DNA from: Nemertoderma westbladi
Taxonomy: Eukaryota; Animalia; Xenacoelomorpha
Direction: 5' to 3'
NCBI GenBank assembly: GCA_032718475.1
Contig: JAUCBJ010000993.1
Location: 1-43,974 of the forward strand
DNA: 43,974 nt
Shown here: one piece after another, positions 33-37,552 of the stretch
How the letters are laid out: each line of letters starts with the position of its first letter
Numbering within the stretch: position 1 is the stretch's first letter
The notes under the pieces: model-generated
Told to the model about the DNA's origin: nothing
What the model saw: the letters and a program-made list of their open reading frames with translations, nothing else
Databases searched by the model: none
Made by a program: the position numbers and the translations under genes

Positions 33-2830
33 CTAATTTTTGTTTGAGGCAGGAGACAAATTATAATCTCCTGTCTCGATGCGTGTCTCTTCTAATAACA
101 CAATATCTTGGACCGGTCGGTCCAAGGTGTGTAAACCATTAGTTTTACACTTCTTTGGGTGCGGACACTTGCACCTAATTTTCACAGTGACTGTGCGCAC
201 TATATTTTGCGCGTCTGGGTGTATGTGCAAGATAACTCCCGTCTCCCAGTACTTTCTCTTGACAATTGGTTCGGTTATCAATACATAGTCTCCTCTTTGG
301 AGGCTCCGAACCGTTTTGTACCACTTTGTTCTGGTAGATATGGTGGGAAGATAGTATTCCCGCCAATATTCCCAGAATGTGTACGCCACAAATTGAGTCA
401 CTTTCCAGCTCTTACGACTATATAGGTCGGCACTAATGGGTTCTGATGCCGGCACAAGAAATGCTGGACTCTGCATTAGCAAATGATTCGGTGTTAATGC
501 AACACCGTCTGGCAACATAGCTATCGGCCTCGAGTTCAGTGTATGCTCGATTTCGATGAAAGCTGTGACCAGTTCGTCGTCGGTAAGTTGTTTGTTTACA
601 GGCAATGTCTTAGCAATAGCCTGCTTTATGGAACGAACCAAACGCTCCCAACTTCCTCCTCTCCAAGGACTTTCTGGAGTATTGAATCTCCACTCTACTC
701 TTTGCGGCAAAAGTGCTGCAGAAATTTCTTTATTCTGCGCTGCTCTGTGAGCCGCGTTCAACTCGCTATTCCCTCCGACAAAGTTTGTACCCTTATCAGA
801 GTAGAACACCTTTACTAGTCCTCTCCTGGCCATAAATCTCTTTAAGGCCAGGAGCAGAGATTTGGTCGACATGTCTGCCACACGCTCGATATGTATGGCT
901 CTACTAGCCATGCATGTCAGTAGCAGGCCCCATCGCTTGTGGGTCAGCCGTCCACTCTTTGCCTCAATCGGACCAAAACAATCCACCCCTGTATTCGTAA
1001 AGGGTGGGTCATATGCCTGCACTCTCGCTTCCGGGAGTTCAGCCATCTCCTGTTCCAATACTCTGGCGTTCACCCTCTTGCAAACCAGACAGGCGTCGTA
1101 CATAGTGCCTACTGCCCTGCTTGGCTGCAATAGAATGAATCGCTGTCTCGCTGCCGACAAACAGTGTAACTTTCCCGCGTGATGCAACCTCTTGTGTATA
1201 TCCCATAGAATCGCTCTTTGCAATTCTATTGGGTGACTAGGGATTATCACTGGGAACCTGAACTGTGAGTTTATGTCGACAGTCTGGATTCTCGATCTAT
1301 GACAAATTAAACCCTTATGGATTAATGGACTCCATTTTCTAAGGGGTTTATAGAGAACTGGTCGTTGAGCCGATAATAGATGAGAATTCTTTGGGAAGGC
1401 ACACATTTGATAATGTTTCAAATGCTTTAATTCCGCTTGATCAATCTCATCCTCTGTCAGAGGTTGTTTCAATTTCTGAATTCGCTCACTATTAGCGCTC
1501 ATTTGTTCTCCCAAATGTTTCGAATGTTTTAAACAAAGGTACGAAATGTATCGGCTTAACCACGCAGTTCTTTTACAAATTGTCAGCCAAGAGGCAGACG
1601 AATTTAGTAATTTGTCATAAATACTACATGGCTCTAATGCCAGCGACGGTTGTCCGCTAATTAATGGAAGTTTCGAATCCAAACCCGCAGGTTTGGAAAC
1701 CAAAGGCTCCATTGTGTCGGTCATTTTCTGTCCGTCACTTACCAACTGTGACCCTCGGGTAGTCTGTAAGGGTGGTTTTATGTCATAACTTACCCTTCCT
1801 GACCTAGTAGTCACGTAAGTCTGTTGGTCTGACAGGTCTCCGGGCCGCTCCAATGACTCTTCAGGCCGCTCCAATGACTCTTCAGGCCGCTCCAATGACT
1901 TGAGTTTGGCTTTAGACTTTGACTTAGAGACTTTCTCCACCTTGACTTCTGCATCTTCTGGCATCGGATTGGTCACTATCTTCAGTCGCTCTGGCCAATG
2001 TTCCTGTGTCCTCGTTAGAAAATCAGGTCCATGCAACCAAAACTCCTGCGACTCTTCCTGACAGAATTCCGCCGGCATTGCACCTCTCGAAGTTATGTCG
2101 GCTGGGTTTAACACTCCCGGACAATGTCTCCATTGTTCCTTCGTCGAAAAATCGACGATCTGAGCGCGTCTGTTGGCCACAAATGTCTTTAGTGCAATAT
2201 TGTCGGCCGCAATGTATACTAACACTAAGGATGCGTCCGTCCAATAAAATAAGGTCAACGTCGTGTCTAACTCCTCTATTATCTGCTTACTTACCTCAAC
2301 TGAAACTACTGCCGCCTGTAACTCTGCACGAGGGACAGTCATGTATTTGACCGGCATTGTCTTTGATCTAGAAGTCACAAAAGCCGTCTCAAACTTGTCC
2401 TGACTTACCTCTCGGCGAAGGTAGGCTACCATACCAAAGCCGGTGTCACTTGCGTCACTAAATAGGTGGAGTTCGAGATCAGCTGGAAATACCAGCTGAT
2501 TCGGAAAGTAGGAACGGGGTACATCTATGTTTTTCAATAGATGCAACTCGGCTTCCCACTCTCTCCACTGCTTTGCATGTATAGGAGATATTGGTTCGTC
2601 CCACTCTAGGTCGGACAACCAAATTTTCCTCATGCACGCTCGTGCCTGTAATATTACCGGACTGATAAAGTTCATCGGGTCAAATAGTCTACTTAATGTC
2701 GATAAGCAAATTCTCTTTGTCAAAACTTTGTCTGGACTACTGGGCTCAAATCTAACTCTTACCTGGAACTTTCTGTTGGTTCCAAGCGAGTCCCAGTACT
2801 CGCGCCATGGGGATGGGTTCTACCCCCAAT
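33..2830 (-). CDS. pol: BEL/Pao Pol C-terminal part: RT connection, RNase H, integrase (HHCC + DDE) and C-terminal domain
   Basis: ORF 33..2723: LHLFSDASDTGFG (RNase H), H..LHH...C..C zinc finger, GVDCFGP / YSDKGTNF / WERL catalytic triad. Joined to the RT ORF through two frameshifts near 2855 and 2770; the intervening frame reads ELGVEPIPMARVLGLAWNQ. Confidence 0.92.
1843..1900 (-). repeat. 21-bp tandem repeat, ~2.8 copies, in frame (LERPEES) in the RNase H-integrase linker
   Basis: ggccgctccaatgactcttca starts at 1843, 1864 and 1885. Confidence 0.9.
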
Positions 2831-4423
2831 TCAATGTCTCCGCTCCCGCGATCCTTTCACCGGGAACGATTCTAATAGGGCCTCCGAATTAGTGGTGAAC
2901 TTGGTCAGAGGAAATCCCCCTGTAGCCAAGCACTTCTGCAGGCCGTGAGCCACTTCTATGGCTTGTTCCGCTGTGTCCTTGGACACCAATCCGTCGTCCA
3001 TATAGAAGTTTCTCAATATAGACTCGATAACCTCTACTGGATACTTACCAATCTGGGCTGTTGCCGTTTTCTTTAGAACAAACAGCGTGCCGTTTAGACT
3101 ATCGCGGGCACCAAATATCCTAACGTACATTTGGTATGTAACCACTGGGCCGGATAAGTCTTCATTCTCAAACCAGAGAAATCGAAGGCTATCCTGGTCT
3201 GCCTTACAGGCTCTTACCTGGTGGAACATCGCCTCGATGTCACAAGTAAATGCGAATCGCCGCTGTCTAAAACGCAACAGTATTCCTATCAAATAATTGT
3301 TCAGGTTGGGTCCGTCCATCAACTCTGAATTCAGGGACATACCTCTGTAGACTGCTGCGCAGTCGTTGACTACTCGGACTTTGTCAGGCTTGTCAGGGTG
3401 AGTCACATAGTGGTGTGGGAGGTAATAAGTCTGGTCTGTCACTAAGTCAGGGTCCTCTACCTTCCCAGCAAATCCCTTGGCGAAATAGTTGTTGATCTGA
3501 GCGCAATACTTCTCCCTAATGTCCGGATTCTTCAACAACCGAGCCTTACTCCATTCAATCTTTTCAAGGCTAAGTGTTAGTTGTTCTCCAACTTTAGGAG
3601 GTTGTCGACGCCACAACATTCCAACTTCAAAATGTCCCGTCGGTAGCAGACGTATGGTGTCTTCCATCATCTCTAGCGACCGTTTCTCATCAGCAGACAT
3701 GGCTAGGTCATATCCACCGGGTTCCATTGCGTCCCTATCCAGCCATTCGACGGTTCTGGCTCCTGTCTCGAGGTCCTGGCGTATCAATTCCTTCTGCAAT
3801 TCCTCCTCACTGTATTGGAAAATGTCTAGGTCTCGATATTTAGCCACCTGACCCTCCACTATGTCGGTATAAGTCAAAACGTTACTCAAATAGGTAGCGT
3901 GGGCCGCTGAACCAGACCCATGGGTCTGATAACAGTAGTCCTCGGGTTCACTATCTGTCCGGTCGTTATGAAGTGGTTCTGACAACCTAACATTATCGGG
4001 AATCAACTCCTCGTCCGACTCGCTAACGTCACTATAATGGTCAATACAGGTTCTCCTAAACTCGTCTATGTCTGGTGGTTCTAGTAACGGTGGTTCAGTT
4101 ATAGGCTGTAATCCGTCGTATCTATCTATTGGCTTGTCGCCACCTGTAAACTCATAAGACATGGGTACTCGTGTATACCAACCTAATATAGTCCTATGGG
4201 CATGTGGTCCATTTACATGCGGCTCAGCTGGTCTCGTTTCCCATATCTGGTGTGCGATCAGCTGTTCTGCACCAATCAACATAGAAACATTCCTATAACC
4301 TACCTGGTGTCTCGGTACTCTGAGTTTGTCAAAATACTCCTGTGCTATGGGACTCATCGGCGGCACCTTACCTAACTGCCTGCTGAACCCCTTCATAGCT
4401 AGACACTTAAATCCGTCCAATGG
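2831..4423 (-). CDS. pol: BEL/Pao Pol: C-terminal half of the aspartic protease plus reverse transcriptase (putative 3' exon)
   Basis: VSMLIGAE and HRTILGW (second half of the BEL protease), then YYLPHH, KVRVVNDCAA, SLNSELMDGP, CDIEAMFHQ, IFGA and NFYMDD (RT). The ORF has no ATG ahead of these protease residues. Confidence 0.9.
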   Translation of the reverse strand, partial: PLDGFKCLAMKGFSRQLGKVPPMSPIAQEYFDKLRVPRHQVGYRNVSMLIGAEQLIAHQIWETRPAEPHVNGPHAHRTILGWYTRVPMSYEFTGGDKPIDRYDGLQPITEPPLLEPPDIDEFRRTCIDHYSDVSESDEELIPDNVRLSEPLHNDRTDSEPEDYCYQTHGSGSAAHATYLSNVLTYTDIVEGQVAKYRDLDIFQYSEEELQKELIRQDLETGARTVEWLDRDAMEPGGYDLAMSADEKRSLEMMEDTIRLLPTGHFEVGMLWRRQPPKVGEQLTLSLEKIEWSKARLLKNPDIREKYCAQINNYFAKGFAGKVEDPDLVTDQTYYLPHHYVTHPDKPDKVRVVNDCAAVYRGMSLNSELMDGPNLNNYLIGILLRFRQRRFAFTCDIEAMFHQVRACKADQDSLRFLWFENEDLSGPVVTYQMYVRIFGARDSLNGTLFVLKKTATAQIGKYPVEVIESILRNFYMDDGLVSKDTAEQAIEVAHGLQKCLATGGFPLTKFTTNSEALLESFPVKGSRERRH

Positions 4424-5624
4424 CAAAGCTCTCTGTTCTTGTCGAGTCGCTTGTGTCCTTCTGGGCTCCTCCCCAAGGCGCACCCACGAGGCGGACACTG
4501 TCCCACCACCCCTGGGGCCAGTCTGACTGATGTTATTATCAGACCGGGCCGGAGGGTGGCCTGATGCTTCCCGGGTTCTGTTTTCGCTCCCCCGATCACA
4601 CCGGCACAGCTCTTCAGTGTAGCCAGATGGTCGGCTACTGTCAACTTACTGTGGCCTGACTGTACATTGAGCCAACTCAGAGAGTCAACCGGCGGGTGGA
4701 CCAGTCGATAGCGATCAAGCACCAAGGTCGCCCTTGGGCCTAAGCGACGGTCTTGTCCCAAGTGGGCTTGCGCTACCCAACATGGAATATTGACACGTTT
4801 TCACCCGCTCGCCGGCAGTATTGAGGGGAAGTAAGTTCCGCAAACAATACTGACTAGCTCGAAAGCTAGGAACAAGTAACCACTTACCAGTCGCTGTACA
4901 CGTGTACTCAACAGATGTTCACAATATCAAGTACACTACGGTAAACACAAAATCTGACACATACCATGCACACACAGATGACATAATCGGGAAAGACAAA
5001 AATCGAGGTCAAAATCGGAGGGGACAAATTGTATCGACCAACAACCAAATCGAGGGTACCTTATTTTGCCGTCAGGGCAAAATAACTTTGTGTGCACAAA
5101 GCATGCTGGGGCGCAGTAAAATATGGTCCTACTAATACCAGTGGCGACTGAGCCAACTGGCAAGGTTTCCCATACTCATTCGCAGTGGCCATACATACAA
5201 TCACGTGTACTCACATACCCACAGCAACAGAAAGCTCATCTCAGACCTAAACACACTCCAAAGACCAATCAACTGAGCATGGAGACAAAACATATAGTAT
5301 CAAAAAAACGGAACAGCTGACTGTCAATGGCACACATCCAAGCCCCAAAGCTAACTGCCACTGCTCGCCGACATACAAATCATAGTTCACACCACATGAA
5401 CCACAAATCACGCCATGCCACCACCCCTACTGTGTACAGGACTGGCAGTATGGCAACAGGCCGACTAGACGGTACCACGGCACCATGGCAATTCATGGTT
5501 CGCTAGACACGAGGGCCTTCAGTATCTCCCTTGCGCTTAGAGACAATTTAACGTGCCCCCAGACCCTCACGAGTCCGCCGCCGCCTGCTATAGGCACCCC
5601 TATAGAGACCTCACCTCTTTAGGT
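4424..5624 (-). ncRNA. Putative group I self-splicing intron (subgroup ID-like core) interrupting the retrotransposon protease
   Basis: Minus strand: P3 GCGGGUG (4808-4802) / CACCCGC (4698-4692). P4 ACG(U)GUC / GACCGU. P5 UUCCA/UGGGA. P6 with a CCAAGG-GCGA-CCUUGG tip. P7 U(C)GACUG (4708-4702) / CAGUCA (4662-4657). P8 GGUUGACUC-UCU-GAGUUGGCU. J8/7 CAAUGUA. P1 exon GCAU / IGS GUGC (5597-5594) with a U-G pair. Core is well supported; the 3' splice site (G4424, alternative G4466) is less certain. Confidence 0.85.
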
Positions 5625-7538
5625 ATGCTGGTCTCTCGGAAGTAGGGAGTCTAGTTCTACCGAAATCCTGTGTCCCTTGAGGTCCCCTACCCCGTGCATA
5701 GACTTCAACTCTATTTGTATTTCCTCTGCGTCCTGGAAGCTAGAAACGGCTCTCGCCACTTCCTCGTCGATATACGATAATGTGGACGCAGTGTCCAACA
5801 TCACATATATTCGCTTAGATCCCTTATCGCCAGTAAGTTTCACCGGAATCACGCTAAATATTTCCGATGTGGCCGATGATAAATACGTCCGCGCGCTGGT
5901 CGATGAACTATCCGCGGTGAAACCTTGGCAGGTCACCTCTCTCGCGCTCGACTCGCCATCCTCGTCCGACGAACCTGGTTGATAACCATCGTCCTGAATG
6001 CCGGTATACGTATTTCTTCTTATCGATACGGGTTCTCTGCTCCCCTTCCTTTGAGGATTTCTCTGTAAGTAACGGTCCGTTGGGGTGTGGAAATCCGCAT
6101 GTAGCAACTTGTGATGTAGTCTGCCGCATTCCATGCATCCGTCCTTGCTGTCCGGGCACTGCCGCCGTACATGACCTGGCGCAAGACATGCCCAACAGGT
6201 ATCCAACGTCCGCACTTGAACTTTTCTCTGTTCCGAATTTAATTCTTTGAACCGTCTGCAACTATCTAACTTATGGTCGTCAGATCTTACCTCCTTTAGT
6301 AAGCAGAATTGGCAACCTACAAATTGATCCGGCAACTCCTGTTGCTTTAACATAGGTCTATCTAACTGCTCACCTGACCATACTCGCGAGTCTGATCTAA
6401 AGGCTGGGGTACTCGAATTATATCTGTCTACTGAGTTAAATGTCACAGTGGTCCTGTCATCGTCAAAACTTACCATAGACTTACCGGTAACAGGTTTAGA
6501 CTCCCTCATATTATCCTCTGAGAAGTTTGATTTCATCTCTGCTACTGCGTCTGTGGCTATCATGTCATGGATATGCTGAAGTGTCAACACCTTCCCTTGA
6601 CCTTCCAACTTATTCTCTAATTTGCGCCATTTCTCGCGCATGTTTAAGCGTCTAATTACGCTCTTCAAAACTTCGGCGTGATCACCATGATGAGGTAGAT
6701 TCACTGTCCTCAAGATGTCTAATGCGTTTGAAATAGCGTTCGCTAAGTTCAACAGCTCTAACGGAGTTGTAATCCTTCCGCCCTTACCCAAGTCTTCCAC
6801 TATCAACTGTGCCATCTTGGTTTTATTCCCGTAGATGTCGCTAAGCGTCTTCATTGCCAACTCGAATGCTCTTTCATTGCCAACGAAGTTGTCAGCAATG
6901 GCTCTAGGTTCTCGATGGAGCATTTGAAGCAAATAGTTGAACTTCTTGTTGGGAGTAAAGGTGCTGTTGGTTAGCTGTTCGTCGACATAGGTTTTGAAAG
7001 TCCTCCAATGCTTATGGTTGCCCATAAACTTCTGGGGTTGTTGCGTCGGCAATCCTTGCCTAGCAGCAAACTTACCTATGTCCCTAAGGGTTGCGTCGTT
7101 CCAGGTTAACAAATGGTTTAGTTCTGCAGGGTTGTTAAGTCTGGTCCTTTCCCGGGGATTAAAACTTACCTGCTCCACGTCCGTCCTTCTTTCCTTATAG
7201 TTTCGGGACTTCTGACGTCTCATGTCTTCCTCTTCATCGCTTGATTCTGTGTCTGTCCTTAGCGCTCGCTTTGGTTTGCGCGCCGAGGCCCTGACCCAAG
7301 CCTCCTGTATAAATTTTTCGGCCGAGTTTTCGAAATCGGGATTATGAATCGTAGGGACAGGCATTCTTACCTGAGATCTATGTGGTATAGTGGCCTCCGA
7401 TATGCGTACTCGTTGACTAGGTTGGACTTTATCTAACTCAGGCCTGCTAGGATTAGAATTACTTCTTACCTGGGCTGCTTCCTTTAACCGTAGGTTACTA
7501 AGCATGTCCGTTATAGGTTGGATGTGCGGCAATATCAC
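5625..7538 (-). CDS. gag: BEL/Pao Gag plus N-terminal half of the aspartic protease (putative 5' exon)
   Basis: KFMGNHKHWRTF...KFNYLLQML capsid-like region; three Cys/His knuckles (CQFC..H..C, CWAC..GH...C, CMECGRLHHKLLH); IYVMLDTASTLSYI catalytic motif. The unspliced frame stops at TAA 5621-5619. Confidence 0.92.
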
Positions 7539-9499
7539 TTACACTTACACTAGCACTTAACTCATCCCTTGTAATAAATTCCTGGCTAGGGTTCTGTTGT
7601 ATAGTCAGCTCTATCTGAGTAATCCGCTGTCTCTCATATGATCCCTATTCCGGTTTAACCCGGAAGTTCTCCATCGAACTGGGTCGGCGCTCCGTCCGCG
7701 TATTCCAAACCCGCGGGTTCGGTTCGCCCAATACTCGACCCGTCGGAGTTTCTCCTCTAAACTCTTCGTTGTCGCGTTCAGTGTGTAGTGGTGCAGTGCG
7801 ATGATGACGTGGATCTTGCGCAATGGGTGAAGCACTAATACCAACTGGTGTGCGATATGTAGAGAACGGTTTAGCGATCAGAGTACTCGTAATAGCTGGA
7901 ACGGGTATAGGAATTCTGGTCGTCTTCGACTCGCGTATGGTCGGAGTTCTCGCTTCCTGTTCGGCCTTCTGCAGTGCGAACAGTTCTCGCAACTCAGTAC
8001 CTATACTCGCCCCACATTCTTTGATCATTCGCATCCCCTTCTCGGCGATTTCATTCACCTTCCTAGTCCGTTCCTTGCTCTCTAGGTTTAATCTCGCACT
8101 TTCCAACTGCGCCAGTTTACGTTCTTCTTCTTCCACGCGCGCCTTTTCCTCATACAACGCCTGTCGCTCCTTCTCGATCTCGAGTTCGCGTTCCTTGCGT
8201 TTGCGTTCAAGCTGTAGTTCGCGTTCCTTCTGTTCGCGTTCGAGTTGGAGTTCGCGTTCCTTCTGTTCGCGTTCAAGTTGGAGTTCGCGATTCCTTGCAT
8301 TCGCGTTCAAGTTGGAGTTCGCGTTCCTTGCGTTCGCGTTCTGCTTGTTCCCGCTTACCTTTATCTTCCAACTCTCGCAACTTCGCGTCTAACTTACGTG
8401 TGCGCTCCCGTTCCCGCTCGGCTTCTTTCCGTGCTTCCGATGCATGCAAAACTTCCGCCTGTTGTTCGTCCAGTCGGCGTCTTCTCTCCTCCGCCGAGTT
8501 GTGAGAAACAAGGGATCTAGCACATATAACTTTCCCTCGCGCGTGACTAACCTGGGAATCGCCACTGTCTCTAGATGCGTCATCGGGTGGAGTTAACGTC
8601 CTCTGTTGGATGTTCTCTGTCGTCGGTAGCACCTGGCCCGGTACCACCACTCCACTCTGCATCAACCAGCCGGTAACTTCCCGGTGATACCTGCGCTCCT
8701 CCTTATCTTGCGTCTCTTCTCGCTCCACTAAGTTTCTCGACTCTGCGTCACTCACCTGAGTCGCCTGCGCTTGTGATGCCCATAGCAGCCAGTTATCCAT
8801 CCTAACTCATCGAAATCGCTCCGATAACGCGCAGTGCTCCAACAAGGCTGCTAAAACCCTGTCGTAAACCCTCGTCGCCACGTCGCTCGACTGAGACTCT
8901 ACTGCTCTCTTTGCCAGGACTGCAAGCTCCTCCGTCTGCTTGAATAACGCTGAGTTGTATCCTCTTCTAATCTCTACTAACCCTTCCCTTCCGATGTTCG
9001 CTGAGTCGGCTAGCATCTTCCTTACCTTGTCCGCCGTCCGAGTTATATGTCCAGCATGCGCGCGAAGTTTCTTCTTTATCGCGATGTCTAGTTCTCTCTC
9101 ACTTACCTGACTCACACTTGGTGGACTTGAAGGATTATTTCGGGAACTACGGATACTCCTTACAGCCGCTGGGACCATGGCACTTACCATACCCACAGGC
9201 CTGGAAACCGGGCTCCGGGCTCTCGCTTCTGCTACACTACCCTCCCTATCACTCACCTCTGGCCGGGTTGCTGTACAATCCTTCCTTACAGTAGCGGTAG
9301 GGGGTCCTAATACTATTACCTCCGGTGGTTCTTCCTCACTAGTTACTGTCTCGTCCTCCTGTTCACTTACGTCAGCGTCACTCACTGCATCGTCATAGTC
9401 GGCATTGTCGTCAACAGTAATATTAACGCTATCGTCAGTCGGCGGTCCAGCCGCCGTCTCATAGCTGGCCTCTAGTGCCTCTTTCTCTGAGACACTCAT
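7539..9499 (-). pseudogene. N-terminal acidic/coiled-coil part of the BEL/Pao polyprotein, broken by stops and frameshifts
   Basis: ATG at 9499. In-frame TGA at 8809-8807 (ORF 8800 continues in the same frame), an extra base near 8290 inside a 33-bp repeat, TAG at 7647-7645, and a further frameshift near 7540-7500 into the Gag ORF. Confidence 0.75.
8170..8345 (-). repeat. 33-bp coding tandem repeat (ERELQLEREQK), about 4-5 copies
   Basis: Repeated gagttcgcgttccttctgttcgcgttcaagttg variants; encodes a charged coiled coil. Confidence 0.85.
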
Positions 9500-9886
9500 A
9501 GTCTAAATAGTATTTGCCTTCCGGCAAAATCTCGCAAAATATTCGAGATATATATAATTTAATCGAAATACACGATTAAATTATTTGTCAAATAATCAAT
9601 TTGTCCAAAATGTCAAATAAATTCGCAATGCAATATTGTGAATTTAATAGGATCTAATTATAGCAAATACCAATACAATATTTAAACAAAATATTGTTCT
9701 ATAGCTATTATGTAGTATTTAAATACCGGTATGACACAAACAATTTTTTGAATCTAATACAAAATATTCAAAATAAACTTGCCACCCAAATATTTCTAAT
9801 TTTAGATATATAACTCTAATCAACGCAATTTTAATTTCAAATACTATATGTATCCACTAGCGCGTGGCTACATCTTCGGGTTGCGA

Positions 9887-13401: not shown

Positions 13402-13593
13402 TGTCATATCCATATAAAAGCATAATAATCTATAGATATGATGTATATTGCTCTATACATTGTGCAGTCGTACCAGTGTACACAAGTACTGCAGTGTACT
13501 GCCGTACTGATATAGTACTGTAGTATATATGTGCATACCGGTAATCCTCATCCTATATCATAGGCCATGGCCTAAGTAATACTGGACACGACA
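13402..13593 (-). repeat. Gypsy 3' LTR (192 bp)
   Basis: Matches 18777-18968 except tgtcat vs tgttat; purine tract at 13604-13594 on the minus strand. Confidence 0.96.
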
Positions 13594-13819
13594 TCACTTC
13601 CTCCAACAAGTAATTAAAACAAACAAGAGAAATAATAGGTATTGATGTACTTATGACTTACTGGTTAATTTCACATACGGCTTAATATCACATTATCACA
13701 TACCACCAAACAAATTAGTTAGTAATAGATTGTCCTAGTTAAGCGTTTGTCAGGCTGTAATCAATGTTATAAATGTTACTATGAATGTTCTATATTACTG
13801 TTTCAAAATTGTTTCAATC

Positions 13820-16800
13820 TTAATAACGAATATATGGTCCCAAGTCTCTAGGTTTTCGTTGTCGTGATGGTCTAGAGTTTTCTACTTGTCCCTGCAGTAA
13901 TTCATGTTCATCATTGCAGTTACCGTCTGGTTCGGCTTGGGGCATACTACTACTACTGCTACTACCACTACTGGATACTACTACTACTAGTAGTAGTAGT
14001 AGTATCGGTCTGGAATCAACATCATCGTCTAAATCTTCCCCTATGTCTTTATTGTACAAATCCTCAGAGGACGCATCACTTTTCTCATTGGTCTTGCTGG
14101 AGTGGTAGTGTTTCATATGGGTTGGATTTCGTCGCAGTGTAGACCCATGTTTTCCTTGTAGTATCATGGATTCTCCCTTCCGGCCAATTATTGTATATGG
14201 TGAGGGGAGCCACGTAGTTGAATATCCCTTTTCTACTCGGTTAAATCTGCGAATAAGGACAATATCCCCAACTTCAAAATCTCTTTCCTTAGCATGGCGT
14301 CGATTATCTGTATATTCTTTCATTCTCCTCTTATATTTCTGATCACGTTGTTGAACTGCTACATTGATATGTGGATTTGGTGTTAAAGCTTGGTTTGATA
14401 GCAATGCAGGGAGTTTTGTTTTTAATGTTCGATGGAACATTAATTCAGCGGGTGAGAATCCAGTGGCAGGATGAGGTGTAGATCTATAGTTGAGTTGGAA
14501 TGTCTGGAGATTGGTTTGCCAACTCTTATCTTCAACGTGGCAACTCTCTATGAATTTTCCCAGTGGCTGGTTAAGCCGTTCAATTTCCCCATTGGCGGAA
14601 GGGAATCGTGGGCTGATCAAATGTACTTTTATGTCTCTTTGTTTACAATACCGTCCGAATTCCTGTGAGCGAAAAGCAGGCCCATTATCAGTTATGATAT
14701 CTTTTGGAAACCCAAATATACTGAAAGTTCTTTCACACGCCTCTATCACATGTTTCGCATTTTCTGAATTCATAGGGATAACAATAGGATAACGAGATCT
14801 GTAGCAAATCATAGTTAATATATGTTTATGATCAACAGGGCCTAGAAAATCCATTCCTATCTTTGACCATGTTTCATTGGGAATGACTGTAGGTTTCAGT
14901 GGTGAGGGTTTTGCAGGTTTGCCTGTAGCTTGGCATGGTAAACACCTTGTTATATAATTTTCTGTATCCTTGTTTAAATTGGGCCACCATACCGTTTCCC
15001 GTAGGAGTTGTTTGGTACGTGTCATGCCTTGATGACCTTCATGGGCTATCTCAATACAGAGGTCACGCAATAGCTGGGGTATAACGATTCTCTTCCCCCG
15101 TAATATTATATTATCGTGGGTGATGCTGAACTCATGTCGATCTGAGTAATATGGCTTCAACACATCTTTGTCTTTGTCCCATGCATCATTCATAATAGCG
15201 GAATGCAGAATAATCAAAGAAGTGTCCTTCATAGTATGTTCAATTATTGTTTCAAGGTTCAGATTAAATGGTAAATTGCTTTGGATTATTGCTCTGACAT
15301 ACTGTTCTGTATGTTTTCCTTTCTGTGGGCATGAACCTTTTGGTGTTTGGCGCGATAATATGTCTGCATAGTTGTCCTTACCTTGGATATAAGATAACTT
15401 ATAATTATATTCCCCTTGTATTTTCAGCAACATGCGTTCTATGCGAGGTGTTGGGTTACCGTTGGGTGCGAAAATTCGCAATAGTGGTTTATGGTCTGTT
15501 TGTATGTTAACTGGTTGTGGTGCTCCACGAAGATAGATGTTATATCGCTGCAATGCCGAAGTTATTCCCAGTGCCTCTCTTTCTGTTTGGCTATATCGAC
15601 TTTCAGTTTCTGAAAGAGACCGATGGGCAAAAGCAACTGGCTGATCAAGTCCTGATGGTTGGGTCTGGCTCAGAATTGCACTAATTGCTGTGGGTGATGC
15701 ATCAGTGGTGAGTGTTGTAGGAAGATCACGTTTGAAATATGCCAATGTTCTAGGATTTGATATTTCTTCAATCAGCTTCTTCCAAGCTATGAGGGCTTCA
15801 TCCGACATTTCGAACACTTTGTTCTTTGCAAGTAGACTCTGAAGAGGTGCTTTAAGAATGGCATAATTTGGGATGAAAGGTGACAACCACCCAAGCAATC
15901 CAAGACTGGACTTCAGTTCAGTCTTGGTAGTTGGAATTTTTAGGTTTTTTACTGCCTCAATTTTCTTCTCACAGGGTGTCAGCCCCGTGTTTGTAAGTAG
16001 ATGCCCCAGGAATTCAACGCTTGTCTACAAAAATACACACTTTGATCGTTTTAATTTTATGTTTCGTTCTTTGCATCTTGCTAACACTTGCTGCAGACGC
16101 TTTAAATGTTGCTGCTTCCCATAAACCCACACAATTATGTCATCACTGGCATTTCTTGTTCCATCAATCCCTTGTATGGAACGTTCCAACTCACGATGGA
16201 AAATTTCTCCACTGGTTGATACACCCATAACCAGAGTAGTATAACGTTTCATTCCTTTGTGAGTGGCAAATGTTGTAAGTGGTCGTGAATCAGGATGTAA
16301 ACCAATTTGATGGTACCCACGATCACAATCTAAATGTGAGTAATATAAAGTCAAGTCATCAGTCATATTGGATGGATTAGGAGGTTCTTCCAAGGCAATT
16401 TGATCAACAATTTCTTCGAGTGTCGGTATCGGATGCCGTTCGCGTACTAGATGTTTATTAAGCTCCCGGGCATCAAGCGTAATCCGAACTACGGGAAGGT
16501 TTTCATCATCTGTGCGGTTGGGTTTAATTTGAAGTACCATTCTTGAAACCCATGGGGTAGGACCAGTGGCAGTTTCAATCATATTAGCCTCCTCCTGGAT
16601 GGAAAGTTCTTTTTCACACGGGCGGCGGAGATGAAATGGAATACGTGATGCACGTACTGCGACAGGGTCTGCATCTTCTCTGAGGTGTAATTTCACTTGT
16701 ATTGGGGTGCCATTTTCGTCACACATGAGACCTGTGGCTGAGAAAACATCGGAATATTTTGATATAATATAGTCCAGATGTGATGTGTCCAATGTTTTGT

Positions 16801-18217
16801 GAGTTTTGCATTCTAATAATTGTCGCACTCCTATCTTCATTCCTCTTTCTTTCACACTAGGTGGGCCAACCCGTAGCAAATCCAAAGCCGTGGCAGATTT
16901 GTATCCTAATAGAGATAAGTCTTGTGTACTAACAACAATAAACTTTACCTTAGCTGCTTGCCCACAGGCTTCCACTGTTGCTCGCACTTTTCCAACGATT
17001 TTTAGCGGAGTTTTTGAATTGTATGGATATATGATACTTTTAGTGGGTGTTAGATTCATGTATTCACCATGTTGTTGTAGTGTTTTGTATGCAGAATATG
17101 TGAGGATATTACATTCTGCTCCAGAATCAATCGGGATAGGGATGCTTGTATTGTTGATATTTACATTGTAACAAGGACCCGCAGTAGAAATCTTATGAAT
17201 TTTGTGTTCCTTAAATAGAGCATTGATGCATAAATCACCATACTCATCAGATGATGTGCTTTCTTCGCTATAAATCGTTTCAGTTTCTTCATTGTCGTCG
17301 ACTAATTGTCGTAAGTTTCGTTTAGTTTTCATACCTACTACTTTCATGTGTCCTATTCCACCACATGCATTACAGATGATTTTTGCTGATATTCGACTAT
17401 CAGGAACTTTGTGATCTGTATTCCCACATCGGTAACAATGTGTATATTGGGGTGTGCTGACAGAATTTGCAGTTGGCGGCTTGTTCTGGTATTTGTAATT
17501 TACCATTTTTCGCTGCCATTGCTGTTCAGCGTTTGCTTTTGGCCTTGAATATCGGTTTTTAAATTTAGCTATTTTATTAACTTCAAGGTCATCAATGTCG
17601 TCACTTTGTCCCACTAGTTTTGTAGATCGTGCGAACTCTTCAATATCTAGTGCTTGTTTAGATGTCTGTTCTAGCGTTTGAGCAATTTGAATACATCGTG
17701 TTAGTGTACAAGCTGCAGCGTCTTCCTCTGCCACTCGAAGAAATCGTTGTAATAATTTCTTGGATCGACATCCTGCTACAGCGCGGTCACGTATATTTCG
17801 CTCTAAAGCATTGCCAAAATTACAATACTTGGCCTGTTTCCAAAGTCGTGCTATATATGAGCTGAATAACTCATTTGGCTCTCGTGTTAGTGAGTTAAAC
17901 CTGAATGTTGAAAATACTTCATTTTCTCTTTTGCCGAATTCATTATTTAGTGATGTACGTGCTACTGTGTAAACATTTTCATTAGTGTCAGGCACAGGTT
18001 GTGGAATAGTCAATGTAACAAAGCGGTCCTGTACCTCTTCACCAGATATATGTAGAAGAATGCTTTTCATTTGTTCAGGGTCTTTGACACCCAGTGCAGA
18101 CAAATATATGTCGAAAGTGTTTAGCCACTTTTCCCAGCGAGGGGTTACGGAACTGACATCATATGAAATTTTAAATGGTTCTGGTGCACGTAGGGAGATA
18201 TGTCTGGCTTCGGCCAT
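13820..18217 (-). CDS. gag-pol: Gypsy single-frame Gag-Pol polyprotein with one premature stop (TAG 16027-16025)
   Basis: ORFs 18217..16025 and 15898..13820 share a frame. Zn knuckles CYRCG/CNACG, protease IDSGA, RT LDCDRGYHQ..NASDDII, RNase H TTDAS..EREAL..TDHKPL, integrase AHEGHQG..CLPC, GMDFLGP, TDNGP, EIER. Confidence 0.94.
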
Positions 18218-18776
18218 CCCTTAAAACTGTAACGTGTACCGTTACTGTGATTTTGTAATAACTTATATCTCAGTATTTATCTTAACTACGAACTGTCAGA
18301 AGCGGCCTACAGTATTGCTATTACTGTATTGGCTTTGGCTCCTATTTTATGTCGAGAACAATTCCTGTAATCATGGAACTGCTATAATATAATATGCATG
18401 CTAGGTTAGGCTGCTAGGCCTAGGTTGTTAATATGAAAATTTTACAACTGTACTGTTGTATATTGTAAGCGCTGTAAGCTGTAAGCGATTGTAGGTTAAT
18501 AAATACCGGTAGTCTGGTAGTTGTGGGTTAATAATACCGGCAGCTGTACAACTGTAATGTTGTACCAAATAGGTAGGCCTATACTTGTAAGCAAATGGCC
18601 TGAGTTTTCTCTGTACCGGTGCCAGAATCTTTTATCACTAAATCCAGAGTCACCAGATCAGTTTCTCCTTTCGCAGTACTGGTAAGCCTAAATCTGTAAA
18701 TGGCGTAAGCCAGTAAGAAGCTTAAGTCTGTAGGTAGAAATGTCACCACCACGTGGATCGACCGACTCTTCGCCAA

Positions 18777-18968
18777 TGTTATATCCATATAAAAGCATAA
18801 TAATCTATAGATATGATGTATATTGCTCTATACATTGTGCAGTCGTACCAGTGTACACAAGTACTGCAGTGTACTGCCGTACTGATATAGTACTGTAGTA
18901 TATATGTGCATACCGGTAATCCTCATCCTATATCATAGGCCATGGCCTAAGTAATACTGGACACGACA
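18777..18968 (-). repeat. Gypsy 5' LTR (192 bp), followed by the PBS at 18775-18766
   Basis: Direct repeat of 13402-13593. PBS TGGCGAAGAG is one mismatch from TGGCGACGAG, the complement of the tRNA-Ser(GCU) 3' end. Confidence 0.96.
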
Positions 18969-19149
18969 TATATTTACGCAAGTGATACCGTAATTTACTT
19001 TACGTACAATTACATTTTGTTACGTTTTGTGTAGCTAATGTTTTTATTGTTTGTTACTAAACCGGGTACACTTCCTTCTAGTTTCCCTATTTTTGATATG
19101 ATAGATTAAAAACTATCATTTTAATTTATCAAAAAATTGCAAAATGGCA

Positions 19150-21607: not shown

Positions 21608-21875
21608 TCGAGGTAACGAGATGGCCAATGAAGGTATTAAAGTTTTATACTGCAATTTCGTAATCACTACTGATAAGTACAGCAGTAGGCCTACCGTACC
21701 GGTAGGCCTATGTCATTACTTCGGAGTCTCTAGCGGATCCCCAATTAAATGTCTTAACTTTTCAATTTCGTAAAAGATAGACTTCATGATTCTCTACAAG
21801 CAACCAAAATTTCAGCTAAGGAAAATGAGGCGTTCCCGAGAAATTTAACATTTTCTAAAAACCACATAATCTGTT

Positions 21876-23657
<1,782 letters not shown>

Positions 23658-25853
23658 TGCCCCATTTGCCCTATATGAACCGTATGCAAAGGCTCGCCGA
23701 CTACGTGTCTCGCCCCACATTAACTGGTTTAGCTGGCTATTACAGTCTCGGTTGAATAACTCTTCCCAATGCATCCTTGCTATGTTAATTAATTGGCGTG
23801 CAAGCTAAATGACTGTTAGTTACACAGTGTGTTGGCTACACAGTGTATTGTACTATGCTCTCCTCCCATTATTGTTTTATTTTGAAATTTTTGTGCCAAC
23901 ATTAATACTGTGGAGGCTATATGCTTATAAGGCTGAATATTTACTCAGCCTCAAAATGATTCTCCATAAGGCTAACATTATAGTTTGAAATATAAAAATC
24001 TGTTATAATAATAATATAATTGTTATATTTAATTAATATCGTGGTTTACATTGAACAGTGTAAATTGTTAATCGCGGTTTACATTGAAACGTCTCAACTT
24101 GTTTTATTTATTACAAAAATAAGAACGAATTTGTCTTATCACTTCTTGTGCGCGATTGTATTGAATTCATGACAACTGCTGTTATTATTATTAATCAATT
24201 GACACCTCGACTCCACTCTGAGACTCCGACTACTCTATCCGATAGAATAAAATAATCATTTCGCTAACTGCTCTCTATCTTCTATAATCACAACAGCTTT
24301 TATAATTCATTAGATGATTACAACATAATAATTATAGTTTGAAGTTGTCTAGAAAATTTCTCGTACACCACCGGGACTACCCTCACACTAATTGATTATC
24401 AGACAGAACAAAAAGCTTTTACTTGACTCGTACTGTCTCCTACGACTTGCTTCACGGGCCGCTAGGCCCGTCTCTAGTAATATACTACAGAACTGATCGG
24501 ATTTGCTGGACACTGCTGCATCAGAAGCGATCAAGCTTGTAAAACATCTTGCAACTTTTAAATCGATAGTATACAGTAGGCCAACATAAACATTTAATTT
24601 AAAATAAAGGTTTTACACTGTAATAAATGATTTAAAATTATATTTATATATTTATCATTCAATAAAATTATTAATATTCAACATTCAATCAATATATCAC
24701 CAGTATCAGTAAACACATCCAAGTTGTGGTCATTATAGATGTAGCTAAATTGAATAGCCGAAATATTATCAAATTAGTTACAATAGAATTTATACAGCAC
24801 ATAATTGACAGGAACGTGTTAATTAAGGTTGAGGCCTGAGAACAACTATCCAACCAAAACCAATACAGTAATACATCTAATTGTTACATCTAATTTGTTA
24901 AGAATTTGGTAAGTGCATTGCATGATAAGTTCCCACCCAAATATTTCTTAAAATCTATACTGCACTTGGCAAGTATTACTTAATTCCTTAACAAATAATG
25001 CAAAATGTGGTAATTGTAAAATTTTAGTAAAATTATCATGCCAGTAATTTGCCATTAGGCAGTACTTTACTAATATGATAAGATTCTCAACCCGGGCTGT
25101 TAGCGTTAGGGCCTAGCAATTTGGTCAGTAAGTCCAGTCTGCCTCCATCACCAAGCAGGTTATTAAAGGAGCAGGTTATAGAAGCGAGTTGAAAGGAACC
25201 AAAACAATAAACAAGAGTTAGGAATAATTTAATTGAGAATTAGCTGTCAGATGTATGCTACAGGAACATGGTCTAATGCTGTAATGCGCCAGGACCTAAA
25301 GCTACAAGACCAAATGCTGTAATGCTACAGGACCTACAGTATTGCGCCAGGACCTAAAGCTATGATGGGGTTAAACGCTAGTAGTACTGGAGTAGGGTAC
25401 CACCTAAAGCGCTGTATATTTCTCATTACAATAAAATTCAATTCAATATGTTTTACAGGATCTAAAGTATACCGATTTAGACCTAACGCTACATTACCAC
25501 CAGACCACTGACTAGGCCTAATTAGAAGACGTTCCATACAGGAAATATGGTTCATGGACAATACCAGGTTTCCATATTACACACACACACACGCACCGAC
25601 ATGCAAACAGACATACTGTACAAACAGACAAATTGACTTTTCAATGTTGATTAAGCATCGCCCTGGCTTGGAAAATTGATGTGTTTGCAGAATTCGACTT
25701 TGCAAAACTGTTATTATGAGTAAAACTATAATGGGTCATTTGGACCCCAACTTACCTTGGAGTTGCCTAAATAATAAAAGCAAATTTAAAAAAAGTGTTA
25801 AAAGTAAAAGTTGTGACCCGGTTACATTTGGATAGAGTATAAAAAAGTAGAAG

Positions 25854-30070: not shown

Positions 30071-30448
30071 AGATGTATGTAAGATGGAGTCCTTCCAGGA
30101 CGACAGTACTGGCACTAAGCATTGGTACAACACCATTATTTTTATCATTTTCAGGGCTCCCCGACGACTATGCCATCTTGACTTCTGGAGAGAACGGCTG
30201 AAGGGTTTGGGCTGAAATTTGGCATGGAGGGTCCATAGGCATTTATAATAGCCAAGAGTTTTTTTGGGCGCGAACCGATCATGAGATCCTGGAAAAGTGC
30301 TATTTTATGTACTACATTTTGTCAATATGCATCACATTTTGACAATATTCATCCGCGGGATCATTCTACATAGTTTGTTTTTTAACAGTATCCTTGACTA
30401 CATCTAAAACAATGGCCAATCTGCATACAGTATATAACATAATACTTT

Positions 30449-32148
30449 ATTAAATAAGGGAGACAACAACGTAGCCAGTTGTGAGTGAGTTAATGAAATA
30501 TAATTAAATAAGGGAGACAACAACGTAGCCAGTTGTGAGTGAGTTAATGAAATATAATTAAATAAGGGAGACAACAACGTAGCCAGTTGTGAGTGAGTTA
30601 ATGAAATATAATTAAGGGAGACAACAACGTAGCCAGTTGTGAGTGAGTTAATGAAATATAATTAAATAAGGAGAACAACAACGTAGCCAGTTGTGAGTGA
30701 GTTAATGAAATATAATTAAATAAGGGAGACAACAACGTAGCCAGTTGTGAGTGAGTTAATGAAATATAATTAAATAAGGGAGACAACAACGTAGCCAGTT
30801 GTGAGTGAGTTAATGAAATATAATTAAATAGGGAGACAACAACGTAGCCAGTTGTGAGTGAGTTAATGAAATATAATTAAATAAGGAGGAGACAACAACG
30901 TAGCCAGTTGTGAGTGAGTTAATGAAATATAATTAAGGGAGACAACAACGTAGCCAGTTGTGAGTGAGTTAATGAAATATAATTAAATAAGGGAGACAAC
31001 AACGTAGCCAGTTGTGAGTGAGTTAATGAAATATAATTAAATAAGGAGAACAACAACGTAGCCAGTTGTGAGTGAGTTAATGAAATATAATTAAATAAGG
31101 AGACAACAACGTAGCCAGTTGTGAGTGAGTTAATGAAATATAATTAAATAAGGGAGACAACAACGTAGCCAGTTGTGAGTGAGTTAATGAAATATAATTA
31201 AATAAGGGAGACAACAACGTAGCCAGTTGTGAGTGAGTTAATGAAATATAATTAAATAAGGGAGACAACAACGTAGCCAGTTGTGAGTGAGTTAATGAAA
31301 TATAATTAAATAAGGAGAACAACAACGTAGCCAGTTGTGAGTGAGTTAATGAAATATAATTAAATAAGGGAGACAACAACGTAGCCAGTTGTGAGTGAGT
31401 TAATGAAATATAATTAAATAAGGGAGACAACAACGTAGCCAGTTGTGAGTGAGTTAATGAAATATAATTAAATAAGGGAGACAACAACGTAGCCAGTTGT
31501 GAGTGAGTTAATGAAATATAATTAAATAAGGGAGACAACAACGTAGCCAGTTGTGAGTGAGTTAATGAAATATAATTAAATAAGGGAGACAACAACGTAG
31601 CCAGTTGTGAGTGAGTTAATGAAATATAATTAAATAAGGGAGACAACAACGTAGCCAGTTGTGAGTGAGTTAATGAAATATAATTAAATAAGGGAGACAA
31701 CAACGTAGCCAGTTGTGAGTGAGTTAATGAAATATAATTAAATAAGGAGAACAACAACGTAGCCAGTTGTGAGTGAGTTAATGAAATATAATTAAATAAG
31801 GGAGACAACAACGTAGCCAGTTGTGAGTGAGTTAATGAAATATAATTAAATAAGGGAGACAACAACGTAGCCAGTTGTGAGTGAGTTAATGAAATATAAT
31901 TAAATAAGGAGAACAACAACGTAGCCAGTTGTGAGTGAGTTAATGAAATATAATTAAATAAGGAGAACAACAACGTAGCCAGTTGTGAGTGAGTTAATGA
32001 AATATAATTAAATAAGGGAGACAACAACGTAGCCAGTTGTGAGTGAGTTAATGAAATATAATTAAATAAGGAGAACAACAACGTAGCCAGTTGTGAGTGA
32101 GTTAATGAAATATAATTAAATAAGGAGAACAACAACGTAGCCAGTTGT
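30449..32148. repeat. 54-bp tandem satellite, ~31 copies
   Basis: aaataagggagacaacaacgtagccagttgtgagtgagttaatgaaatataatt, with an interspersed variant ggagaac in place of gggagac. Confidence 0.97.
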
Positions 32149-33258
32149 CTGTGAACTCTCTATGAACTCTGTGGTTGTATTAAAGAACGTTGTGTCAATG
32201 TAATAATAATGGATGGCTATGGCTAGCAAGGTAACAATGCAATGCGCCTGTACGCAGTGACTATGGTAAAGAACTCATTAGCATAATTAGATTGGATATT
32301 GCCTTGAATGGACGCCATCTTGAATGGATATGTAGAGTGAAAACACAGGAACATGACGTTGGATTGGGCTTATTTAAGTATCTCTTGAAAAAGTAAATAT
32401 ACCACGAGACTCGTCATGTTGCATTCCATAAGATGTATATATTTTGAATATAATTTTTGATAGTATAATAGGAGTTTTTGCATAAAAACTAGCTTAAAAG
32501 GCGATATTTTTTTGTAAAAAGCCGGGTTTAGCAAGATGAGTTGGTTGGGATGTCAACAAAGCTTCTGATTCGCTGTTTCTGTGGAGACAAAGGGAAAATA
32601 GCTTCAACCATTATAGATTTAACATTAAGTGAAGGGGAATAATGGTTTGTCTTTTTCACAGAATTTTCGCCTGTACATTATTTCGAAAAGTTTTGGGTTT
32701 GATCGCGCGAAAGTGACAGATTCGGAAACTAGATTGAATTTTGCATACAACTTTTTTTTTTTAGCTACTCTTGAGGATCAAGTTTTCTATGTTTATTTTG
32801 CATTTTAAATACTAACTTTCTCCCCACCATTGAACTAATGGTAGTGTTTGAACGAATGAGAGTTCTTCGTTACTAAAATGACATGATGATTACTGACTGA
32901 GCGTGGCTTAGAAACCAGTAGTGTACTCTGAAAATAATGAAAACTTTGGCGGCCTGTAACTTTGGTTGACGTGGATGAAATAGGCTGATTTTAAGTTCAT
33001 TAGAATGTGCGTAATTTTCTCTTTCTGTTCATACTAAGTACTAATTAAAACGATGAAGAATAACCTTATTTGAATTTATAGTTATAATAACATAGTTGAT
33101 ACAATGGATCAAAGGGGGCAGGGGTGTGTATGGTAAGTATTTGTTATAGGCCTATGCATTGCGGCTAAATGCCATGGTATCATTATGTAAATGCTTGTGA
33201 AATGATACTGGTATCGGTATCGGTAAATTGATATCGACATTGATTAGTGATATTGGCA

Positions 33259-35229
33259 TCGATATTGGTTATTGTAATTGGTTATTGATATTGGTTAGTG
33301 GTTATTGATATTGGTTATTGGTATCGATATTGGTTATTGATATTGGTTATTAATATTGGTTATTGGTTATTGATATTGGTTATTTATATTGGTTATTGAT
33401 ATTGATTATTGGTATCGATATTGGTTATTTATATTGGTTATTGGTATCGATATTGGTTATTTATATTGGTTATTGATATTGATTATTGGTTATTTATATT
33501 GGTTATTGGTATTGATTATTGGTTAGTGGTTATTGGTATTGGTTATTGGTATTGATTATTGGTTATTTATATTGGTTATTGGTATCGATATTGGTTATTG
33601 ATATTGGTTATTGGTTATTGATATTGATTATTGGTATCGATATTGGTTATTTATATTGGTTATTGATATTGATTATTGGTTATTTATATTGGTTATTGGT
33701 ATCGATATTGGTTATTGATATTGGTTATTGATATTGGTTATTGATATTGGTTATGGGTTATTGATATTGGTTATTGGTTATTGGTATCGATATTGGTTAT
33801 TGATATTGGTTATTGATATTGGTTATTGGTATCGATATTGGTTATTGGTATCGATATTGGTTATAGAGATTGGTTATTGATATTGATTATTGGTTATTGA
33901 TATTGGTTATTGGTATCGATATTGGTTATTGATATTGGTTATTGATATTGATTATTGGTTAGTGGTTATTGGTATTGGTTATTGGTATCGATATTGGTTA
34001 TTGATATTGGTTATTGATATTGGTTATTGATATTGGTTATTGGTTATTGATATTGGTTATTGGAATCGATATTGGTTATAGAGATGGGTTATTGATATTG
34101 ATTATTGGTTATTGATATTAGTTATTGGTATCGATATTGGTTATTGATATTGGTTATTGATATTGATTATTGGTTAGTGGTTATAGATATTGGTTATTGG
34201 TATCGATATTGGTTATTGATATTGGTTATTGATATTGGTTATTGGTTATCGATATTGGTAATTGATATTGATTATTGGTTAGTGGTTATTGATATTGGTT
34301 ATTGGTATCGATATTGGTTATTGATATTGGTTATTGATATTGGTTATTGGTTATCTATATTGGTAATTGATATTGATTATTGGTTAGTGGTTATTGATAT
34401 TGATTATTGGTATCGATATTGGTTATAGAGATTGGTTATTGATATTGGTTATTGATATTGGTTATTGGTTATTGATATTGGTTATTGGTTATTGGTATCG
34501 ATATTGGTTATTGATATTGGTTATTGATATTGGTTATTGGTATCGATATTGGTTATTGGTATCGATATTGGTTATAGAGATTGGTTATTGATATTGATTA
34601 TTGGTTATTGATATTGGTTATTGGTATCGATATTAGTTATTGATATTGGTTATTGATATTGATTATTGGTTAGTGGTTATTGGTATTGGTTATTGGTATC
34701 GATATTGGTTATTGATATTGGTTATTGATATTGGTTATTGATATTGGTTATTGGTTATTGATATTGGTTATTGGTATCGATATTGGTTATAGAGATTGGT
34801 TATTGATATTGATTATTGGTTATTGATATTAGTTATTGGCATTGATATTGGTTATTGATATTGGTTATTGATATTGTTTATTGATATTGATTATTGGTTA
34901 GTGGTTATTGATATTGGTTATTGGTATTGGTATCGATATTGGTTATTGATATTGGTTATTGATATTGATTATTGGTTATTGATATTAGTTATTGGCATTG
35001 ATATTGGTTATTGATATTGGTTATTGATATTGTTTATTGATATTGATTATTGGTTAGTGGTTATTGATATTGGTTATTGGTATTGGTATCTATATTGGTT
35101 ATTGATATTGGTTATTGATATTGGTTATTGGTTATCGATATTGGTTATTGGTATTGGTTATTGATATTGGTTATTGGTTATCGATATTGGTTATTGGTAT
35201 TGGTTATTGATATTGGTTATTGGTTATTG
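33259..35229. repeat. Complex satellite of GATATT / GGTTATT / GGTATC units (13-mer GATATTGGTTATT core)
   Basis: About 2 kb, almost C-free on the plus strand, with higher-order sub-blocks. Confidence 0.95.
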
Positions 35230-37224: not shown

Positions 37225-37552
37225 TAGTGTTAAATTAACCGCAGATTCCAAATACAGTTACCGTTTTTACATATGATTGGTAGTTCTCGCGATATTGGCG
37301 TTCAAACACAACGTTTTTTGATATTTTACGAAATTTAAGGTATTTTTTATTGAAAAAGCAGACATAACTATTCCCAGTCCGTTTCTGTAACATTAAGAGA
37401 AAAGTTAACTTGTGATACTTCTTTTAGTGTTAAATTAACAGCAGATTCCAAATACAGTAACCGTTTTTACATAAGATTTGTAGTTCTCGCGATATTTGGG
37501 TTCAAAAACAACGTTTTTTGATATTTTACGAGATTTAAGGTATTTTTTATTT
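37223..37552. repeat. ~130-bp direct repeat at ~200-bp spacing
   Basis: ttagtgttaaattaac.gcagattccaaatacagt...aaggtattttttatt at ~37224 and ~37424; also present in copy 2 (43427-43756). Confidence 0.85.

Follow-up and report, generated by a model that had tools for sequence, protein, structure and literature searches.

A predicted self-splicing group I intron in the protease gene of an animal BEL/Pao retrotransposon, and its relatives in other retroelements and in large DNA viruses

A BEL/Pao long terminal repeat (LTR) retrotransposon on the Nemertoderma westbladi contig JAUCBJ010000993.1 (GenBank assembly GCA_032718475.1; the window, that is, the whole analysed stretch of 43,974 nt) carries within its protease gene a minus-strand insert, 5624-4448, that is almost certainly a group I intron by descent. 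The insert probably splices itself out of part of the transcripts, which would allow Pol to be made, and was probably also still being spliced while its element family amplified. A sequence-only reading of this DNA had proposed that the insert is a group I intron, that its 5' splice site is a U-G pair at U5625 and that the BEL protease frame is kept when the intron is removed, and this proposal is now well supported by the borders, the core, covariation and a covariance model. The features are summarized in Table 1.

The minus strand of 33-7538 is identified as a BEL/Pao element by its open reading frames (ORFs) and Pfam domains, the domain order being intact: DUF1759 gag, protease, reverse transcriptase (RT), Peptidase_A17, integrase and DUF5641. 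One frame, 5619-7538, encodes DUF1759 gag plus the aspartic protease half that bears the catalytic D, and another, 2831-4645, encodes the remaining protease and the RT, such that the two protease halves, as delimited with a profile from 83 of 120 relatives, reside in different frames with about 1.2 kb of non-coding DNA between them. U5625 is the last base of a codon, as previously proposed, and the upstream frame runs only two codons into the insert before a stop, the unspliced reading being Gag plus half a protease. Removing 5624-4448 keeps the reading phase from the upstream part into the RT; judged by phase, only this removal would yield a continuous frame. This copy of the element has further breaks and is a decayed copy, and no pair of LTRs was found for it in the window, past which its 3' end runs. 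The named relatives of its proteins are all from animals, and BEL/Pao elements are described as exclusively metazoan in PMC3118150; together, these point to an animal nuclear genome as the likely location of the insert. A search with the gag half for other split BEL proteins returned a single protein, of the unsplit type, and a search of representative proteins returned distant BEL proteins only. Upstream of gag, the minus-strand frames of the element at 7645-9502, coiled-coil and acidic, are broken in this copy, have no Pfam match and include 33-nt repeats at 8158-8341.

The borders of the insert were derived from contigs of three runs, DNA by guess, from one organism. The whole stretch including the insert is covered by contigs with summed depths from thousands to more than 100,000, a depth that is not a copy number, and a minority of contigs (depth 10-336) span the site without the insert and represent insert-free sister copies. 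Among the joints listed, the net difference is 1,177 nt in all five types that can be sized, two further types being unsizeable; a near-exact joint fits 4447 to 5625, giving an insert of 4448-5624 with an ambiguity of 2 nt (AC) at its ends. The last exon base is C in all four insert-free types with letters given and U in the intron-bearing form. Intron-like contigs in runs X3 and X6 depart from the flank exactly at 4447/4448 and continue into other flanks, suggesting that related introns likely occupy other sites of the same genome. Run X4, RNA by guess only, yielded 8 contigs and no joint, and is uninformative about expression.

Canonical group I introns combine a P1 with a U-G wobble, a P3-P7 pseudoknot, P4-P6, a P7 with a bulge and a G-C pair, a 7-nt J8/7, P9.0 and a terminal G. 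The insert resembles the introns of Rfam RF00028 in all of these, including a terminal G4448 with P9.0. The bases and pairs named in the sequence-only reading for the 5' junction exist: G5628-C5594, C5627-G5595, A5626-U5596 and U5625-G5597, followed by an A-G mismatch and four more pairs, and a second P1 register keeps only the wobble at the same U5625. A core descriptor, written after the sequence had been seen, detects a single core across the two strands of the window and also matches 11 of 3000 shuffled versions of the insert. P5 consists of one short hairpin lacking the P5abc extension, J7/3 is 2-3 nt with no P7.1-P7.2 extension, and the predicted structure belongs to neither subgroup IA nor subgroup IC1/IC2. 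P10 at G4448, read from the sequence, comprises two pairs at most, and P10 is optional among group I introns. A 16-bp long-range helix (4995-4980 with 4602-4587), the 3' arm of which overlaps a motif conserved in homologues, may be chance pairing. No Pfam match was found inside the insert in the 12 frames tested, which include no long ORF, endonuclease, transposase or TnpB. Rfam gave no RF00028 hit in the window at either gathering or E-value level; its snoRNA and miRNA hits there have chance-level scores and were rejected. Also rejected was a plus-strand R-like motif near 5460 as part of an antisense core: it is the reverse of the family 5' domain described below, and the descriptor finds no antisense core.

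Homologues of this intron are widespread in viral and metagenome contigs. A 20-letter P7 and J8/7 pattern taken from the window has 28 matches in viral contigs, and 28 of 28 also carry P4, P6, J6/7, P3 and the peripheral motif, none of which is in the search pattern. With a P4/P6/P7 pattern, metagenome contigs give 106 matches and 185,579 prokaryote genomes give none, exact patterns overlooking variants. Together, these two patterns yield 134 loci (cited below by our own numbers) with 100 distinct homologous cores, and no second BEL host is present among the 134; a third pattern yields 94 viral stretches, 66 of them distinct and 48 with a downstream core in reach. A blastn search of phage records with the window core gave no match. 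The homologues share with the window the 5' domain 5587-5461 and a 3'-end motif, AAG-C/T-G (52 homologue ends called), that in the window ends at G4448; the base before the terminal G is C or U, both of which pair with the P9.0 G, in 52 of 52 ends called with a pattern that allowed only these two.

Covariation supports the core. In the 83 cores that have every anchor, pairing holds in 557 of 581 P3 cells, compared with 420 +/- 7 (maximum 444) in 2000 partner shuffles, which leave the relatedness among homologues in place; in a 32-sequence alignment, two-sided changes affect 7 of 9 P3 pairs and 2 of 4 P8 pairs, and slid controls collapse. P4, P6 and P7 scarcely vary and thus provide no covariation signal, partly because the search patterns force those letters. 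A covariance model built from 32 homologues with the window left out scores the window at 103.9 bits (E ~2e-25), the next best score being 10.9. RF00028 does not hit the family cores of 20 homologous loci, although it does hit a nearby separate intron in one of them, L013. An extra 5' hairpin is found in 28 of 101 cores, the window included, and in 14 of the 18 loci that are retroelement-like or envelope-like (of the other 4, two have little upstream DNA), compared with 0 of 17 and 0 of 66 viral members, and apparently marks a retroelement branch of the family. A tree of 27 introns leaves 12 of 24 inner branches open and gives no direction of transfer. Five GC-rich members (L034, L035, L065, L078 and L089; 62-66% GC) combine a long P6 with a long P8 and lack an identified host gene.

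The hosts of the homologues were identified in 44 flanking frames scanned with Pfam, the rest having no informative match. Genes of large DNA viruses host a number of these introns (capsid, 7 loci; DNA polymerase B, 2; RNA polymerase, 2; helicase-associated domain, 1), and RT, RNase H or integrase domains flank 8 loci: L060, L062, L068, L071, L072, L093, L104 (below the cut-off) and L106. Within retroelements, the insertion sites vary, namely, the RT, the RT-RNase H interval, RNase H, the integrase zinc finger, positions around the integrase core and, for the window intron, the protease. The host of L072 has uninterrupted relatives that are at most 77% identical, SCAN-bearing Gypsy elements with animals as their named members. 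When the two sides of L072, L062 and L071 were aligned separately, the uninterrupted relatives reaching the break (of 120 in each case) place them directly side by side, the split codon alone intervening, in 110 of 110, 107 of 107 and 73 of 77 cases, respectively; thus, the predicted splice rule of the family is exact in three Gypsy hosts. Automatic calling of 5' sites is crude, with several loci mis-picked, and only calls supported by a fold or a protein are relied on; by automatic calls, reading phase is kept in 4 of 5 assessable homologues, the fifth having a doubtful 5' call.

Among the viral loci, L002, L003, L004, L008 and L024 (about 1160-1700) carry their introns a few codons before the end of the major capsid gene, and L008 and L019 each carry two family introns in tandem. 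The capsid protein of L002 is closest to PDB 6OJN/8HIF (E 7e-81), which we take to be an iridovirus capsid. Group I introns are reported as not found in four invertebrate iridovirus genomes in PMC4149023. In L013 (1290-2407), a locus in a viral RNA polymerase gene, the family intron lies 3' of a LAGLIDADG domain and about 500 nt from the RF00028-positive intron. The flanking frames of L053, L069, L077 and L084 have no Pfam match and look envelope-like by eye, and the flanks of L038, L044, L047 and L052 look gag-like, likewise by eye.

The guide sequence in P1 differs between loci and matches each homologue's own exon over 5-11 pairs. This locus-specific match is, among the sequence features considered, the strongest sign of apparent selection for splicing in the family. 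The U-G pair has a probability above 0.5 in 23 of 39 homologues, as computed on a fixed folding fragment that overlooks many short viral P1s. Homologues L067, L071 and L072 have a long P1.

The mechanism that we propose builds on the borders, the frame, the group I core, family membership and the many unrelated insertion sites in retroelement genes. By established group I chemistry, guanosine would attack at U5625 and the exons would be ligated at G4448, with helper proteins possibly needed in the cell. Splicing would be incomplete: the unspliced RNA would be both the message for Gag and the genome for copying, and a smaller spliced pool would yield Pol. Incompleteness is required because an LTR element copies its RNA, and the intron is inherited only if unspliced RNA is packaged; the weak P1 might represent a tuning to slow or partial splicing. 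The intron could spread by reverse splicing into retroelement RNA followed by copying by the element's own RT, the simplest route given that there is no endonuclease inside and that the sites are many and unrelated. Reverse splicing via 4-6 nt is described in PMC10964413. We lean slightly towards a broader interpretation in which these group I ribozymes form an undescribed clade that is mobile between animal LTR retrotransposons and large DNA viruses without an endonuclease, spreading by reverse splicing and setting the Gag:Pol ratio as an RNA-catalysed switch.

Several observations weigh against active splicing in the window, and these also make up much of the case for the most serious alternative, a less likely but substantial possibility, namely, that the intron is one by descent that no longer splices, with the family making only truncated Gag and being amplified as a non-autonomous element by the Pol of insert-free sisters. 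Self-splicing of the window intron is itself a prediction from sequence, and insert-free sister families, present in the same genome and the same runs, could supply Pol in trans. P1 as drawn in the sequence-only reading is a possible pairing, although not the preferred fold of the isolated fragment (-13.6 vs -18.8 kcal/mol; pair probability 0.001), where a competing hairpin prevails, and it has 4 exon pairs compared with 5-11 in the retroelement-hosted homologues. The core departs from that of the family in an extra U in P4 (which only a minority of family contigs lack), in a P6 without the G-U pair that 83 of 83 homologues keep, and in a J7/3 variant seen in just 1 of 83 and 2 of 48 others, departures that are common to most contigs of the window family. 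The window is outscored by 40 of 54 held-out homologues (range 60-156 bits) and has a long end branch (0.4) in the 27-intron tree; a dead intron would, moreover, be inherited without loss. In addition, the homologues were found by window-derived patterns, and invariance at those letters is forced.

What favours continued splicing over loss of activity is the pattern of variation. The guanosine site, P7, J8/7, P8, P9.0 and the terminal G are intact and invariant in the family contigs, none of the 24 variant sites listed falling in P7, J8/7, P8, P6 or P9.0. The changes in P3, P5, P6b and P9 mostly preserve pairing, including an apparent C-G to U-A double change in P6b, with linkage inferred from matching shares; most family contigs have one P3 pair more than the window, and a stem near 4497 is shorter in one variant. 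Downstream, an open frame of more than 480 codons persists. The synonymous counts weigh neither way: in pol, the synonymous share is 7 of 16 compared with 0.28 expected (40 of 280 rows), and the coding differences are synonymous in 14 of 32 cases, from a biased subset of the 280 rows.

A different 3' end is very improbable, except perhaps as a minor cryptic site. The sequence-only reading had the intron extend to G4424 or end at G4466, both in frame (inserts of 1,201 and 1,159 nt), and regarded the compact protease spacing given by G4424 as that expected of a BEL protease. Indeed, the distance from the catalytic D to the conserved G is 107 residues with G4424, within the 100-107 of 83 distant relatives, and 115 with G4448, which gives a protease exceeding even the longest of these by 8 residues, a point against our placement. 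We nevertheless prefer G4448 because close insert-free copies carry those extra codons, the 4425-4447 stretch is present in insert-free contigs, and, in addition, none of the listed joints gives 1,201 or 1,159 nt, the intron-like contigs part at 4447/4448 and the family end motif stops there. Comparison with intron-less copies thus bore out the 5' breakpoint and the frame and moved the 3' breakpoint to a third in-frame G; with it, the P10 and P9.0 pairings drawn for the other two fall away, and both junction probes proposed for detecting spliced RNA are off, by 24 or 18 nt. The lack of an Rfam match, the modest folding z-scores (-1.5 and -1.8) and one joint with GT..AG ends on the plus strand might be cited for a nested transposon, a spliceosomal intron or a chance structure, but this alternative is largely refuted and extremely improbable, given that there is no ORF and, in line with the sequence-only reading, no terminal inverted repeat or target-site duplication at the true ends, that the GT..AG ends are antisense to the gene and unable to restore the frame, and that a covarying group I core recurs in about 100 homologues with matching guides.

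Table 1. Features of the interrupted BEL/Pao element and of its predicted intron
Feature	Positions	Strand	Remarks
Upstream coding part	5625..7538	minus	BEL/Pao gag (DUF1759, zinc knuckles) and first protease half with catalytic D; last base U5625
Group I intron (by descent)	4448..5624	minus	1,177 nt; starts after U5625, ends at G4448; no long ORF
P1	5594..5628	minus	U5625-G5597 wobble; 4 exon pairs, weaker than in most retroelement-hosted homologues
Hairpin competing with P1	5588..5605	minus	perfect 7 bp over the guide sequence; pair probability 0.95 in isolated fragment
Conserved 5' domain of the intron family	5461..5587	minus	includes the extra hairpin found only in members without flanking virus genes
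Variable non-coding stretch, 5' domain to P3	4816..5460	minus	no Pfam match; 12-nt direct repeat at 4899 and 5202
Catalytic core	4651..4815	minus	complete P3-P8, assigned by hand
P3	4808-4802/4698-4692	minus	core pairing
P4	4798-4792/4752-4747	minus	core pairing; J3/4 = AAA
P5, P6, P6b	within 4651..4815	minus	P5 short single hairpin; P6b with GCGA (GNRA) loop
P7	4708-4702/4662-4657	minus	guanosine-site pair G4706-C4658, bulged C4707
P8	4690-4670	minus	core stem
J8/7	4669-4663	minus	7 nt; J6/7 = 3 nt
P9 domain and ends	4448..4650	minus	conserved peripheral motif; P9.0 G4655-C4449, C4654-G4450; terminal G4448
Joint types across the insert	4441>5626, 4444>5622, 4445>5623, 4447>5629, 4447>5632		insert-free contigs; each net 1,177 nt
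Downstream coding part	2831..4447	minus	second protease half and reverse transcriptase; same phase as upstream part
Rest of pol	33..2819	minus	Peptidase_A17, integrase zinc finger, DUF5641; extra frame break near 2820-2860

Several known systems resemble the window intron in part. The group IB introns of chloroviruses (PBCV-1 a125l, the TFIIS gene) likewise reside in protein-coding genes of large eukaryotic DNA viruses, although the likeness is one of description, no TFIIS-like motif being present beside the 66 distinct viral matches. Efficient processing of chlorovirus introns in vivo is reported in PMC7019647 and PMC3946568. IStrons, which join a group IA2 intron to IS200/IS605 or IS607, are another case (PMC13565253) of a group I intron that travels with a transposon and hides the insertion at the RNA level; however, they are bacterial, the intron contains the transposon and the unit moves as DNA, whereas the window intron lies inside a retrotransposon, encodes nothing, lacks the IA-type P7 extension and has no matches in prokaryote genomes. 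Catalytic RNAs in retroelements also include the hammerhead (Penelope, retrozymes), twister and HDV-like (R2) ribozymes, which are small and cut transcript ends without exon ligation, whereas the window intron interrupts the coding sequence.

Two-pool control of Gag and Pol has a parallel in the spliced gag RNA of copia and the spliced pol RNA of foamy viruses, where the spliceosome makes separate RNA pools for Gag or genome and for Pol; in the window element, the switch would be a ribozyme. To our knowledge, nuclear group I introns have been described only in the ribosomal RNA (rRNA) genes of fungi and protists, and animals are generally regarded as having group I introns only in some mitochondria. 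PMC10964413 likewise describes nuclear group I introns as confined to rRNA genes, and PMC9587614 and PMC12768974 treat endonucleases and spliceosomal introns. No account of a group I intron in an LTR retrotransposon, or in protein-coding DNA of an animal nucleus, turned up in a literature search that did not extend to most subscription journals, repeat databases or supplements; an earlier description may exist.

Elsewhere in the window, a second LTR element, of the Gypsy type, occupies 13402-18969 of the minus strand, with RT, RNase H, integrase and 193-nt terminal repeats that are 99% alike; a single stop near 16023 divides its two long frames of the same phase. A 54-nt tandem repeat at 30297-32200 includes a frame that reaches 43.1 bits against Pfam PMT_C3 (cut-off 27) without any one stretch passing, and the match is most likely an artefact of the repeat. 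An 8-nt satellite spans 21800-23800, and 13-nt and 43-nt satellites at 32324-43974 lie in a 6.2-kb tandem duplication with near-identical copies.

That one intron family interrupts BEL and Gypsy elements in their protease, RT, RNase H and integrase regions overturns the picture of nuclear group I introns as restricted to rRNA genes, and, the family being invisible to Rfam, such elements are probably mis-annotated as broken. Reverse splicing combined with reverse transcription becomes testable as a route to new group I sites, given a system in which the intron, its RNA target and the RT share one particle and sister copies with and without the intron coexist. Homologues with a long, perfect P1 are candidate new ribozymes for animal cells. 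If our interpretation of the clade as mobile between large DNA viruses and animal LTR retrotransposons is true, its introns would be the first of group I that are active in nuclear protein-coding DNA of animals.

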